DNA from: a virus
Lineage: Duplodnaviria > Caudoviricetes
Reading direction: 5' to 3' (one strand)
Virus record (IMG/VR): IMGVR_UViG_3300048080_000159
Location: 1-36,519 of that record
DNA length: 36,519 bases
Within the stretch, counting starts at the first letter, position 1. Each line of letters starts with the position of its first letter. The position numbers and the translations under genes were made by a program. A model generated the notes under the pieces. That model searched no databases. It had not been told where the DNA came from and was given only the letters and a program-made list of their open reading frames with translations. This document shows, one piece after another, positions 271-36,489 of the stretch.

Positions 271-320
271 ATATGGTCGGGACGGAGTGATTCGAACACT
301 CGACCCCTAGCACCCCATGC
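271..320. repeat. Left att site: duplicated 3' part of tRNA-Pro
   Basis: ATATGGTCGGGACGGAGTGATTCGAACACTCGACCCCTAGCACCCCATGC is identical to 36410-36459. Confidence 0.97.
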
Positions 321-594
321 AAGCAGATGGGGCTGCACACCGCTAAACACATGACTCCATAAGGGGCGCTCGCTGCAACGATGCCCAACAGTGTTTAACG
401 TCGAGTGCCTTTGTCACTTGGAAATCCCTCGACCCCTAGCATTTTCCATCTCCGGCGTTCTGCCGACCTATAACAACCACCATGCTGCGCCTAAATTTAT
501 GCACAACACCGTTGTAGCTAAAGAATTTTCAGAACGTCTACGTCAGTTCTGCTAGCTTCATTGCGACGAATATCCATCCGACAGGAGATATGGA

Positions 595-900: not shown

Positions 901-1152
901 ATGAGCGATGAATGCGAGGTTGTTGATGTAGCTGGATTGGGGCGGATGCTTGGACGAACTGAGGCAGCGGTAAGACAAGGGATTAGCCGTGGCGTGGACT
1001 GGCTACCCAAGAGTTTCAGAATGGGATCGAGGCATTGCTGGCTCAAGGATGACGTGCGGGCGTTCCTGCTCGCCTGCCGGGATGGCGAGAACAAGAGACC
1101 GAAGGTCGGCAGAAAGCGCAAGATTCCACCGACACTGATCAGTATCAGGTGA
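901..1152 (+). CDS. Excisionase/AlpA-like winged-HTH DNA-binding protein
   Basis: GGAGG SD. The pattern VDVAGLGRMLGRTEAAVRQ...LPKSFRMGSRHCWLKDDVRAFL fits the RDF/MerR-like wHTH, with a basic tail. Confidence 0.75.
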   Translation: MSDECEVVDVAGLGRMLGRTEAAVRQGISRGVDWLPKSFRMGSRHCWLKDDVRAFLLACRDGENKRPKVGRKRKIPPTLISIR

Positions 1153-1201
1153 TGTCGGATCGGAAAATGACGTTTGCGCGGCGAGGCGCGAGGACACAAG
1201 C

Positions 1202-1399
1202 GTGATAGAGATAAAAGATATTGATCGTTTCCTTCGCCTCGACGAGGTGCTTCACACCACCGGGCTTGGGAGAAACACAGTTTATCGTCGGATCAGAGAA
1301 GGGACCTTTCCAAAACAAGTCAGGATAGGCCCCAACTCGGTGGCTTGGCGTCAGTCAGCAATCGTCAAATGGATGTTCGATCTAAACCCAGTCGATTAA
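1202..1399 (+). CDS. alpA: AlpA family regulator / recombination directionality factor
   Basis: RFLRLDEVLHTTGLGRNTVYRRIREGTFPKQVRIGPNSVAWRQSAIVKW is a typical AlpA signature; GAGG SD, GTG start. Confidence 0.92.
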   Translation: MIEIKDIDRFLRLDEVLHTTGLGRNTVYRRIREGTFPKQVRIGPNSVAWRQSAIVKWMFDLNPVD

Positions 1400-1438
1400 A
1401 CGCAGGAGCGTGTTGCGATCGAACTGCGGAGTGCAAAA

Positions 1439-1699
1439 ATGCGCTATTTAACCGTCAGGAAGTTTTCCAGCGAGTCAGGCTACACGGAGGCAGCAATAAG
1501 ATCGAAGATCGCGGACGGAACGTGGGTTGAAGATCGGGTCTGGAAGCGGGCGCCAGACAGTCGGATTTTGATCGACGTACAAGGATATGAGGAATGGGTC
1601 GAAAGCTTGGCAAGGCCACAGCTATTAATACAAAAATCACCGCGTCAAACGTCCAAAAATCGAAAACACGTAGCTCTAAGCCCGCCACCCTTCAAGTAA
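1439..1699 (+). CDS. Phage excisionase (orphan)
   Basis: MRYLTVRKFSSESGYTEAAIRSKIADGTW...WKRAPDSRILIDVQGYEEWVE matches the proteobacterial phage Xis pattern; GGAG SD. Confidence 0.85.
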   Translation: MRYLTVRKFSSESGYTEAAIRSKIADGTWVEDRVWKRAPDSRILIDVQGYEEWVESLARPQLLIQKSPRQTSKNRKHVALSPPPFK

Positions 1700-1857: not shown

Positions 1858-1873
1858 CTGTATATCCACACAG
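1858..1873. promoter_or_regulatory. LexA (SOS) box
   Basis: CTGTATATCCACACAG fits CTG-N10-CAG with palindromic TA flanks, about 20 bp upstream of GTG 1893. Confidence 0.85.
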
Positions 1874-2288: not shown

Positions 2289-3299
2289 CTACAACTTTAT
2301 CGATTTCAGCCAGCGCCACGCTTTGCATCCACATATCAGATAGGGAGCAATAGAAAGAACCAACACAAAATAAGGAGTTAATACCGGAATGTTTCGAAAG
2401 TTAGGCTCCATTTCTAGGAGGACTAACGGGACGATAATCCCGAACCCTGCGACCCAACTGAGCACCAACAAGCCAACCACGGAAAGTTCTTTAAAGCGAT
2501 ATCTCTGTTTTACTTTTTTCTTTACCTCTACGACATCCTGATACAGTGCTAAGTACCGCTGACCGTATTCGTTCATTCTTTGAAAGCCCGAAATAACCAT
2601 GGAGGCGTAATCAGTCGGATGCCGAGATGAGTAAAATTCTGTGAACCAGTCTCTCGTACGTTGTTCGTCCCATTTTGGGTCATTCCCTCGAACAGTGCGT
2701 GTATGCTCCACTTTTTCCTCGATCTCTGCCACTATCTTTGACGCCTCTATTTCAGAAGCTCTTCGAGCTAAAGCGGTATAACCTTCACCTGCGCTCGCCC
2801 AGCAAAAATCCAAATAGTTGACTCGCTCAGCTAATGCTTGGAACCTTTCAGCATCATCTATTGAGCTAAAATCACCCTTCTCCGTCTGGCTTGAAGCGAT
2901 CATGCTATACCCTTCGAAGGGGTAACTTACGTGGATTCTATAAAGCGTAGAGCAAAACGATTTGCATAGACTCAGCAGTACTTCATCGTCGAGAAATTCG
3001 AACTCATACGGATCCTCCACAACACTCTTGCGGCATTTAAGACGTGTATCTCTCAAGAGCGCTTGAACTTTCACCCAATCCAAACTTCCAGCATCATCAT
3101 ATATGTCTGGACTTCCTGCCTGAAAATGAAAAGCCGGACTAATAAAGTCCTTCATTCCTTTTCGAACTTCCTCAGCCCTATCTTCGAACTCGTAAATTTT
3201 CTGTTGCGCCTGAATAAAAAACGCGGACAAGAACGCAGTCCCAATCCCGAGGACGGTACCGTGTAATCCAGGCAAAGCAGCCAGCAGCTGTGATGGCAT
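2289..3299 (-). CDS. Moron: 336-aa membrane protein of unknown function (1 N-terminal and 2 C-terminal TM segments)
   Basis: Long ORF, visibly AT-richer than the structural genes; hydrophobic stretches VLGIGTAFLSAFFI, VVGLLVLSWVAGFGIIVPLVLL and YFVLVLSIAPYLIC. Confidence 0.85.
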   Translation of the reverse strand: MPSQLLAALPGLHGTVLGIGTAFLSAFFIQAQQKIYEFEDRAEEVRKGMKDFISPAFHFQAGSPDIYDDAGSLDWVKVQALLRDTRLKCRKSVVEDPYEFEFLDDEVLLSLCKSFCSTLYRIHVSYPFEGYSMIASSQTEKGDFSSIDDAERFQALAERVNYLDFCWASAGEGYTALARRASEIEASKIVAEIEEKVEHTRTVRGNDPKWDEQRTRDWFTEFYSSRHPTDYASMVISGFQRMNEYGQRYLALYQDVVEVKKKVKQRYRFKELSVVGLLVLSWVAGFGIIVPLVLLEMEPNFRNIPVLTPYFVLVLSIAPYLICGCKAWRWLKSIKL

Positions 3300-33189: not shown

Positions 33190-33228
33190 ATAAAAATACT
33201 TCTTGTCTCGCAATATCAATCAGCTTAT
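33190..33228. promoter_or_regulatory. OL-like operators
   Basis: ATAAAAATACTTCT (33190) and ATCAATCAGCTTAT (33215) match the OR consensus, upstream of the early operon leading to int. Confidence 0.65.
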
Positions 33229-33265
33229 ATTTTCTTCATCGAAGACAAGATGGAGCAACACACCA

Positions 33266-33574
33266 ATGAGTGGAATTATCAATTTCGGACAGTTTCATGG
33301 ATCGACCGGCCTATTGGCGGAGCAAGAGATGCGCGCCGCTATGGCAATCTGCTCAGGTCTGTCCGGCAAGGAGGCGGCTCGAGTCCTAGGTTGCGCACCA
33401 GGCACAGTTAAAAAAACTGTAGAACGCATTTTCTTCAAGCTGGGTGTTTCCAACCGAGCGGCCTTAGTAGCAGAGGTTTTCAAACGCGGCCTGATTGATT
33501 TCGCATGCAACATGACCCCTTCCCCACAGCATCAGCACGAACAGGAATCTACCAGTGGCGCTCTCATCGCGTGA
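33266..33574 (+). CDS. LuxR-type HTH protein
   Basis: LAEQE....ICSGLSGKEAARVLGCAPGTVKKTVERIFFKLGVSNRAALV; GGAG SD before ATG 33266. Confidence 0.88.
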   Translation: MSGIINFGQFHGSTGLLAEQEMRAAMAICSGLSGKEAARVLGCAPGTVKKTVERIFFKLGVSNRAALVAEVFKRGLIDFACNMTPSPQHQHEQESTSGALIA

Positions 33575-33707: not shown

Positions 33708-33902
33708 ATGTTGATTCTCACCCGTCGAGTCGGCGAAACAATCCGCATCAACGACGACATCAGCGTCACTGTGCTTGCCGTCACGGGCCAGCAAGTGCGT
33801 ATCGGTATCACCGCGCCGGCCGCTGTCGAAGTGCACCGCGAAGAGATCTACCAGCGCATCCAGGCAGACGTCCCACAGGTGAAAGGGGAAGCCCGTGCCT
33901 AA
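33708..33902 (+). CDS. csrA: CsrA/RsmA family RNA-binding protein
   Basis: [46 protein letters not shown]; AAGGAG SD. Confidence 0.97.
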
Positions 33903-34753: not shown

Positions 34754-34877
34754 AACTATCCTGCCCTGTCGCTCAATCGTCTTTTACCTAAACAAGTCTT
34801 CAGTCGGAATTAACGGGCGGTGGTTTCCCCTGGCGAGCTGGGCGTGCGTGTCGGCTGCTGCTTGGGAGAAGATATGA
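34746..34877 (+). CDS. Small ORF, 43 aa, coupled to xis (below the ORF-track cutoff)
   Basis: GGAGG SD; MAKTILPCRSIVFYLNKSSVGINGRWFPLASWACVSAAAWEKI; its TGA overlaps the xis ATG. Confidence 0.5.
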   Translation: MAKTILPCRSIVFYLNKSSVGINGRWFPLASWACVSAAAWEKI

Positions 34878-35275
34878 GTTCAGAATTAGCACTCCTCCCC
34901 CGCTTCATCCGAGCTAAGCAAGCCCCTGCGTACCTTGGCATGTGCCGCGCTGTATTTGACGCGGAAGTACGCCCGCACATCCGAGAATTTCCCATTGGAA
35001 AACAAGGTGTCGCCTTCGACCGGCATGAGCTGGACGAGTGGGCCGACGCCTACATCGCTCGGAAGTCGGTTGAAAAGGCAGCAAATCAGGACAACAATCA
35101 GCCCCGCAGCGAGCGCCGTGGTGGAGCCAAAGGAGATACCCCATGGCCCAAAAAGCAATCTCAGGTCTCCAGCAAATGCCGAGCGGCATCTGGAAAATTG
35201 ACAAAGTCTACAGAGGAGAAAGAATTCAGGAGAGTACTGGCACTCGTAACCGGGCGGAAGCAGAGCAATACCTAA
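34874..35275 (+). CDS. Cognate excisionase-like protein overlapping int
   Basis: PRFIR..QAPAYLGM.R..FD..VRP....PIG.QG.AFDR.ELD.W wHTH pattern; GGAG SD; 133-bp overlap with int. Confidence 0.8.
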   Translation: MSSELALLPRFIRAKQAPAYLGMCRAVFDAEVRPHIREFPIGKQGVAFDRHELDEWADAYIARKSVEKAANQDNNQPRSERRGGAKGDTPWPKKQSQVSSKCRAASGKLTKSTEEKEFRRVLALVTGRKQSNT

Positions 35276-36330
35276 TTCATAAACTCGAAAAACTAAGACA
35301 GCAAAAGGTCTACGGGGTAAAGCAGATCAGGACTTGGCGGGAGGCTTCCACCAAATTCCTGCTGGAAGTGAAGGACCAGGCCTCGATCCATATTTCAGCG
35401 ACGTATATGGCTCAGCTCGACCCCTTCATTGGGGATATGCCGATCACCCATATAGATGACGCGGCCTTGGCCCCGTACATCAAATCGAAGCTGAACCCCA
35501 AGGACGGGAAGAAGCCGGTCACAAACCGGACAGTAAACATCGCCCTTCAGCGAGTCATCCGGGTTTTGAACCTGTGTGCCAGGAAGTGGCGAGATGACGA
35601 GCGCAGACCCTGGCTCGATACCGTGCCGATGATCTCGCTGCTGGATGAGAAGACGACCAGTCGCAAGCCCTACCCGCTTTCGTGGGAAGAGCAATCGATT
35701 CTGTTCTCTGAACTGCCGGCGCATTTGCAGATCATGGCCATGTTCAAGGTCAACACCGGCTGCAGGGAGCAGGAGGTATGCAAACTTCAGTGGGATTGGG
35801 AGATTGCGGTACCGGAACTGGGAACGAGCGTGTTTCTGATCCCGGCCGGCTTTGGAGGCAGGAGCGAACGATCCGGCGTGAAGAACCGGGACGAGCGTTT
35901 GGTGATATTGAACAGCGTGGCCAAGTCGATCATCGAAAAGCAGCGCGGGCAGCACAAGCATTTCGTCTTCCCTTTCGGGATGCCGGATGAGGATGGGAAT
36001 CTGACCATGATTCACCGGATGAACGACTCGGCCTGGAAGCGAGCAAGGATCAGGGCTACCAAGAAGTGGCTCGAAAAACATCTTCGAGCACCACATGAAG
36101 GGTTCACCAGGATCCGGGTTCACGACCTGAAGCACACCTTTGGCAGAAGGTTGCGTGCAGCAGGCGTCACAGAAGAGGATCGAAAGGCATTGCTCGGACA
36201 CAAGAACGGCAGCATCACCAGTCACTACTCAGCCGCAGAGCTGGACCAACTGATTGAAGCTGCGAATAAGGTATCAGTAACCGATTCACGCGCACCAGCG
36301 CTGACGATTTTGAAAAGGAGGCAGGCTTGA
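35143..36330 (+). CDS. int: Tyrosine integrase
   Basis: NTGCREQE (R), VKN (K), HDLKHTFGRRL (HxxK variant), LLGH and SHY motifs; adjacent to the att/tRNA. Confidence 0.96.
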   Translation: MAQKAISGLQQMPSGIWKIDKVYRGERIQESTGTRNRAEAEQYLIHKLEKLRQQKVYGVKQIRTWREASTKFLLEVKDQASIHISATYMAQLDPFIGDMPITHIDDAALAPYIKSKLNPKDGKKPVTNRTVNIALQRVIRVLNLCARKWRDDERRPWLDTVPMISLLDEKTTSRKPYPLSWEEQSILFSELPAHLQIMAMFKVNTGCREQEVCKLQWDWEIAVPELGTSVFLIPAGFGGRSERSGVKNRDERLVILNSVAKSIIEKQRGQHKHFVFPFGMPDEDGNLTMIHRMNDSAWKRARIRATKKWLEKHLRAPHEGFTRIRVHDLKHTFGRRLRAAGVTEEDRKALLGHKNGSITSHYSAAELDQLIEAANKVSVTDSRAPALTILKRRQA

Positions 36331-36409: not shown

Positions 36410-36459
36410 ATATGGTCGGGACGGAGTGATTCGAACACTCGACCCCTAGCACCCCATGC
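36410..36459. repeat. Right att site
   Basis: Identical to 271-320. Confidence 0.97.
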
Positions 36460-36489
36460 TAGTGCGCTACCGGACTGCGCTACGCCCCG
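36413..36489 (-). tRNA. tRNA-Pro (GGG)
   Basis: CGGGGCGTAGCGCAGTCCGGTAGCGCACTAGCATGGGGTGCTAGGGGTCGAGTGTTCGAATCACTCCGTCCCGACCA; 77 nt, anticodon arm CTAGC-ATGGGGT-GCTAG, TTCGAAT T-loop, CCA end. Confidence 0.98.

Follow-up and report, generated by a model that had tools for sequence, protein, structure and literature searches.

Arrays of foreign excisionase-type genes in Pseudomonas prophages and islands, candidate blockers of rival integration

The window analyzed here, the whole of a 36,519-bp virus record, appears to be one complete temperate prophage with relatives in Pseudomonas. Judged from sequence comparison, a run of three small genes close to its left end (R1, R2 and R3) is a real, selected and variable cassette of foreign excisionase genes. 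With moderate confidence, we favor the hypothesis that this array is expressed in the lysogen, where it would block the integration of incoming rival temperate phages.

The prophage and its three excisionase-type genes

The prophage is bounded by 53-bp direct repeats that correspond to the 3' part of tRNA-Pro(GGG) (Table 1), and it contains repressor, replication, head, contractile-tail and lysis genes. The preliminary description had pointed out an integrase gene and an overlapping xis-like gene, and both are real: they are intW and X0, the putative excisionase gene of the prophage itself. The array is situated within the prophage at the lysis end, in the orientation opposite to the late genes. 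When region 330-2300 was compared by blastn, no full copy was found in phages (4 partial matches) or plasmids (0). Between the array and the lysis genes lies a low-GC moron of 336 aa (2289-3299, minus strand), a candidate defence gene with no match in Pfam, PHROG or PADLOC. Between the R3 stop and a LexA-box match, a 7-nt unit is briefly repeated in tandem, possibly to a variable length, and the early operon upstream of xis-int includes a LuxR-type gene (33203-33574) and a CsrA-like regulator gene (33708-33902).

Table 1. Coordinates of the array, the integrase module and associated sites in the window
Feature	Position	Strand	Basis or remark
Left att core, 53-bp direct repeat, 3' part of tRNA-Pro(GGG)	271-323		98% identical to 36410-36462
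12-bp motif, att arm of the intW family	365-376	+	inverted copy at 35106-35117
Extended -10 match, TGCTAnnnT type, predicted promoter of the 595-1699 operon	550-558	+	36 nt before the start at 595
Conserved hypothetical gene, 77 aa	595-828	+	SD; not Xis-like by HMM
R1, Xis-fold protein, 83 aa	901-1152	+	phrog_6355, predicted structure, neighbors of relatives
R2, AlpA-family protein, 65 aa, GTG start	1202-1399	+	PF05930
R3, excisionase, 86 aa	1439-1699	+	phrog_9668
LexA-box match, downstream of the array, before the next gene	1858-1873	+	comparison with the LexA consensus
X0, putative own excisionase, overlaps int	34874-35275	+	ATG start at 34874
intW, own tyrosine integrase	35143-36330	+	Pfam/PHROG
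Right att core	36410-36462		inside the intact tRNA-Pro(GGG) gene at 36413-36489 (-)

The array genes are all intact. As had been noted from the sequence at first sight, they are consecutive and co-oriented, each is preceded by its own SD-like (purine-rich) stretch, and they are dissimilar (best pairwise BLASTP E values of 0.003-0.03 over 15-37 aa). R2 is indeed an AlpA protein (PF05930, E 1.8e-18) and R3 a phage Xis (PHROG excisionase phrog_9668, E 1.9e-22). The HTH_17 label first given to the product of the gene at 901 finds no support in Pfam, which gives R1 no match; it belongs to phrog_6355, a PHROG family of unknown function. The best structural match of the AlphaFold model of R1 (pLDDT 73.8) was the RdfS excisionase (Z 8.1, rmsd 2.3, 57 aligned), followed by GIsul2 Xis (Z 6.6) and then BldC, P2 Cox and Pukovnik Xis, and Foldseek returned nothing for R1 at E<=0.001. 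By HMM (R2, R3) or by model (R1), all three proteins are of the excisionase type and have the small MerR/Xis-type winged-helix domain expected of a tyrosine-integrase RDF. In PADLOC only a weak mad1 match was obtained for R2 (E 1.7e-4), as expected of an AlpA domain. The 77-aa gene ahead of R1, whose homologues amount to 19 matches counting itself, is probably the first gene of the same operon. An Rfam scan of the window and 10 array loci returned nothing relevant besides tRNA and tmRNA.

For the normal partners of these proteins, viral, genome and metagenome collections were scanned and the copies classed by their neighboring genes. Among the matches listed (the best 80 of 97, 289, 276 and 142 in four scans; two scans used array-type queries, so that the figures are pairing proportions and not frequencies), 72 of 118 distinct copies of R1 were integrase-linked, 36 stood in arrays and 10 were classed as other; the corresponding numbers were 75, 20 and 5 out of 100 for R3, and 114, 14 and 8 out of 136 for X0. 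Integrase-linked R1 copies are convergent to one integrase family (intR1), beyond which tRNA-Ser(CGA) is found in several loci, and in phage vB_PaeP_YA3 the homologue of R1, convergent to the integrase, bears the annotation excisionase. Integrase-linked R3 copies extend into the beginning of intR3, an integrase gene of the Arm-DNA-bind_2 type, and X0 overlaps intW in 80/80 best viral matches. R2 relatives are neighbors of the att site used by intR2, a P4-type (Arm-DNA-bind_3) integrase that inserts at queD: the next gene was queD in 43 and intR2 in 10 of the 79 loci (53/79), and most of the other 26 stop at a contig edge. In these elements insertion takes place at the 5' end of queD, and attP comes with a divergent queD start (L103, L123, L132).

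R1, R2 and R3 each have a different integrase as partner (21-29% identity over partial alignments). The initial proposal that the genes are RDFs for three other integrase families is thereby borne out, insofar that the close homologues of each gene adjoin one tyrosine integrase family, a different one in each case. Since intW pairs with a fourth family, X0, and R1-R3 pair with other integrases, the three genes, as read from their genomic context, belong to three foreign modules and not to the cognate int-xis module of the prophage. The arrays moreover assign RDF-integrase pairs for the unannotated families phrog_6355, phrog_13517 and DUF4224.

As far as sequence comparison goes, it is on this family pairing, and not on distance, that the orphan status of the genes rests. 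The separation of 33 kb from int emphasized in the preliminary description is correct for the integrated form, but it fails as an argument for orphan genes because, measured across attP, just 710 bp separate the array from the int stop, with both in the same direction; orphan status is thus not shown by distance alone. The argument is also wrong in form, because the cognate integrase of R2 sits at the far prophage end as well, as was the case in 3 of the 5 proviruses inspected. A prophage with int at one end and rdf at the other has a precedent in PMC6957869.

Recurrence and selection of the arrays

With an array defined as two or more co-oriented Xis-family matches without an integrase nearby, the survey of related elements yielded 45 distinct, variable arrays with 2-6 members in 30 compositions, 3 of the 45 being doubtful (L369 minus, L500 and L635). 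Array members fall under 14 family labels, among them HTH_17, DUF4224, Exc and further AlpA types, and the DUF4224, XL2 and X4 families were each seen elsewhere paired with the integrase of another prophage. The X0 family occurs in 16 other arrays and is missing from that of the present prophage. By hand count, 14 of 401 sampled genomes from one Pseudomonas genus group (~3%) hold an array, which is a lower bound, with three families searched, 11-14 candidates scored per genome and the center genome included. The carriers are prophages, with the array at the lysis end, and P4-type islands, and the same R1/R2/R3 arrays accompany at least five unrelated own integrases. Two kinds of two-domain fusion, R3-X4 and DUF4224-X4, occur without an integrase. 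In L029 and L094, 42-48 integrase codons persist behind the Xis gene, and these remnants suggest capture from xis-int operons.

Further observations were made at the array loci. The fusions (R3-X4 / DUF4224-X4) are located at L001 6490-7086 and L007 1827-2423; L383 835-1341, L494 10499-11005 and L500 743-1282. A protein of 69-72 aa (phrog_12397), with its own -10 motif, heads or closes many arrays (e.g. L030 4756-4974, L004 1531-1740). Unrelated cargo genes lie between R2 and R3 in L060 (1106-2872), L074 (5533-7296) and L032 (5766-6941), so that the array is also an insertion hotspot. Defence-type genes beside arrays comprise a match to PD-Lambda-2_B, accompanied by a small, toxin-like partner (L029 6969-8400), and a SoFic match (L034 6133-7287).

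Two lines of evidence indicate that the array copies form lineages of their own and are maintained. First, on unrooted FastTree trees of short alignments, from which copies under the length cut were dropped (3, 1, 1 and 1 rows), the label array or linked changed 3 times for R1 against 29.6 after shuffling, and 3 times against 18.4 for R3; the R2 and X0 trees required a single change each (support 88 and 99, respectively). Secondly, dN/dS for disjoint array-array pairs was 0.15 for R1 (14 pairs), 0.20 for R2 (10), 0.13 for R3 (8) and 0.20 for X0 (4), with L094 left out on account of its integrase remnant. The ratio was below 1 in all 36 array pairs, and integrase-linked copies gave similar values (0.14-0.19). 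Purifying selection is accordingly evident at 0.13-0.20 in the array copies, and the array genes of the present prophage differ from their nearest copies by a pN of 0.08-0.12 and a pS of 0.54-0.68. The integrase frame is kept in 1/20 array copies of R3 and 0/14 of X0, compared with 75/75 and 113/114 linked copies, and despite this loss the C-terminal tail motif of R3 is retained in 18 of 19 array copies. The array R3 cores have a median identity of only 65% to the nearest linked copy, and their specificity may therefore have drifted.

Expression signals, self-avoidance and possible functions

The predicted promoter of the array operon belongs to a sigma70/S-type -10 motif class (TGCTAnnnT) that is found ahead of 25 of 39 array units, compared with a mean of 2.1 and a maximum of 7 after shuffling, the units being related and not independent. 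A stock sigma70 scan of the window gave no promoter. For the present prophage, control of the array by the SOS response was rejected, since the LexA box is downstream of it; none was found upstream of the array in the window, 1 of 34 arrays matched upstream, and the LexA-type boxes of arrays mostly lie downstream, ahead of the next gene. The LexA-box match at 1858-1873 precedes a coiled-coil gene (ORF 1767-2237, likely start near 1893) of a kind common at Pseudomonas prophage ends and, in relatives, often beside SRAP-like genes.

Among 13 prophages in which the array could be read together with the own integrase module, the carrier's own family was present in the array in none, against a permutation mean of 3.6 (p=0.007; p=0.012 after removal of 2 related rows). 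This set comprises prophage arrays, to the exclusion of P4-island arrays, single orphans, G110 and arrays for which no integrase was found (G002, G005, G007). The result becomes weaker (2/13, p=0.066) if a divergent DUF4224-X4 fusion (36-39% identical), on the opposite strand, is scored as own family. An RDF of the own family would be expected to destabilize its carrier, and self-avoidance as seen in these sequences therefore fits expression of the array in the lysogen.

From these results, the mechanism of the favored hypothesis could be outlined as follows. Each family is normally paired with a tyrosine integrase of its own, as the neighbors of its linked copies show; array lineages, by trees and dN/dS, are separate and under purifying selection, with the integrase shed; and on the permutation test, carriers lack their own family in the array. 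A constitutive or stationary-phase promoter would yield the proteins without SOS induction, and from what is known of RDF biology, the pre-made Xis would bind the attP arms of the rival together with its Int. Bound Xis would shift recombination away from integration, and the repressed, unintegrated rival genome would be diluted out, whereas an established prophage with little Int would mostly stay. Against this hypothesis, many arrays sit in P4-type islands and not in phages, and expression early during infection is also possible, because in the circular genome the array is located just downstream of int across attP and in the same direction.

Overexpression of AlpA is known to excise CP4-57. 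RDFs are reported to prevent re-integration (PMC3509656), overexpressed RdfS cures its own ICE (PMC11963761), and the Pseudomonas XisF4 and XisF5 are subfamily-specific (PMC7379572). Such specificity would explain why many RDFs have been collected.

A broader version of this hypothesis, which we regard as tentative, is that the arrays are an evolving library of rivals' excisionases, amounting to a heritable record or integration immunity, and that the X0 module in addition senses or silences the rival. The latter part derives from the leader of array X0, in which a -10 motif is followed by an 11-bp stem whose loop holds a 10-nt motif of the intW att arm; the loop would thus match a conserved site by the rival integrase start and att arm. 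In 103 of 134 X0-linked loci the motif is found, inverted, ~28 nt before the intW start. The stem is 92% paired and shows compensatory changes, with both sides altered in 4 of its pairs, in few lineages, and the motif-bearing leader is present in L001, L004, L007, L037, L050, L085, L087, L164, L383 and L396. A pattern search retrieved 13 viral records, in 10 of which the leader stands ahead of an orphan X0, and a 9-mer search for a leader/att motif common to R1, R2 or R3 loci found none. The inverted motif also occurs just downstream of array R3 in L030, L032, L037, L058 and L074, where it adjoins the end repeats of array-carrying P4-type islands, in one lineage and possibly by chance. Because the sites bound by RdfS are attP and the promoters of int and of its own gene (PMC11963761), the leader motif is most simply read as an autoregulatory operator. 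It could also be an Xis/Int site or, more boldly, take part in long-range or antisense RNA pairing that resembles retroregulation across attP.

The co-occurrence of arrays and matching prophages bears on another function that had been proposed at the outset, the eviction of co-resident elements. In this alternative the array would evict or sabotage residents, prematurely excising or curing other prophages either on infection, by read-through across attP, or on co-induction. We consider this rather unlikely. By hand count, 4 of the 401 genomes contained an orphan copy together with an integrase-linked copy of the same family, where ~1.8 would be expected given background rates of 58, 23 and 13 in 401; no genome-level depletion of matching prophages in array carriers was seen in this set, a comparison of low power that depends on arrival order. 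Blocking, against which the lack of depletion would also count, likewise depends on arrival order. In G185 an intact orphan X0 with its leader is found with an intact X0-intW prophage (70% core identity), in G039 the orphan and linked R3 are both intact (68% core identity), and in G101 the pair is 44% identical. Since two of these genomes thus combine an array gene that is intact with an intact matching prophage, the initial suggestion of eviction is weakened and its constant form disfavored, as far as such pairs can tell. The fourth genome, G008, would suit eviction, as it holds an intR1 prophage and each of the three genes of its array has suffered a frameshift or deletion. Eviction is equally compatible with self-avoidance, and read-through would be helped by the co-directional position of int and array, a geometry that can also be deduced from positions in G001, G003, G004 and G006. 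However, arrays have their own -10 motif and are often several kb inside att behind other genes, and excision also needs the Int of the rival. Quiet prophages, such as lambda, may make no Int. That RDF overexpression can cure elements (PMC11963761) is nevertheless in favor of eviction.

It is improbable, in our judgment, that the proteins are mainly transcription regulators or decoys, similar to Cox, XisF4 or TorI, acting on promoters of rivals or on host genes. The position of the X0-family motif before intW in the linked loci would agree with such a role, but the tail motif of R3 has been kept after loss of the integrase frame, and the collection across unrelated integrase families, together with self-avoidance, points to recombination modules. 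The C-terminus of lambda Xis reportedly serves cooperativity with Int. RDFs do often control transcription, as stated in PMC7379572, PMC3509656 and PMC11963761.

Even less probable is a cooperative role, in which the array would assist its carrier in its own excision or, in islands, would mobilize helper prophages. The short distance to int across attP and the arrays in P4-type islands could be taken as support, and, according to PMC7721734, VefA/B/C of V. cholerae promote the excision of other islands; yet intW is always paired with X0, the same R1/R2/R3 arrays ride with unrelated own integrases, and the own family is avoided. Finally, that the arrays are neutral debris of nested, decayed elements at an integration hotspot is very improbable, for although integrase N-terminal remnants occur in L029 and L094 and the arrays of G008 and L500 are decayed, the arrays are recurrent, variable and under purifying selection, they share promoter motifs and include separate clades and fusions, and remnants at one att site should be rich in that site's own family whereas the array families use other targets; for most arrays, the dN/dS and tree results rule out a decayed nested remnant.

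Comparison with known systems

A literature search, confined mostly to papers free of subscription, retrieved no arrayed or orphan excisionase system. Within the searchable literature the arrangement is new, its protein parts are of known kinds, and an antagonistic function is probable. If blocking as favored here is true, the arrays would add a new layer of mobile-element conflict, acting at the integration step with the rival's own parts, and they would influence what prophages a single genome is able to accumulate. They would also offer a means, specific to each family, of blocking Pseudomonas prophages or removing them.

In position, in orientation opposite to the late genes, in having their own promoter (here predicted) and in high turnover, the arrays resemble the moron and superinfection-exclusion cassettes at the lysis end of prophages. 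The known cassettes of this kind keep a phage from entering or replicating, or they kill the cell, and we know of none that acts on the integration step by means of an RDF. The ICP1 Adi protein and the trigger of PLE excision are similar in that a phage protein works via the integrase and att site of another element in a conflict between genomes, according to PMC9638900 and PMC6002521; these are, however, single proteins of a lytic phage that act on a serine recombinase, and neither captured Xis genes nor an array is involved.

With the RDFs of tyrosine integrases (lambda Xis, RdfS, AlpA, TorI, P2 Cox and Pf XisF4/XisF5) the array proteins have the small winged-helix fold and whole families in common, and relatives of the array genes likewise adjoin tyrosine integrases. 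Known RDFs, however, occur one per element and are cognate, whereas arrays hold 2-6 unrelated ones, without integrases and with the own family missing. A further likeness is to VefA and VefB (VPI-2) and VefC (VSP-II) of V. cholerae, where, according to PMC7721734, RDFs act on other elements and one island carries two. The Vef proteins promote excision among co-resident islands, whereas the role of the arrays would be antagonistic, and unlike the Vef genes, the array members stem from unrelated phage integrase families and are brought together in a variable cassette.
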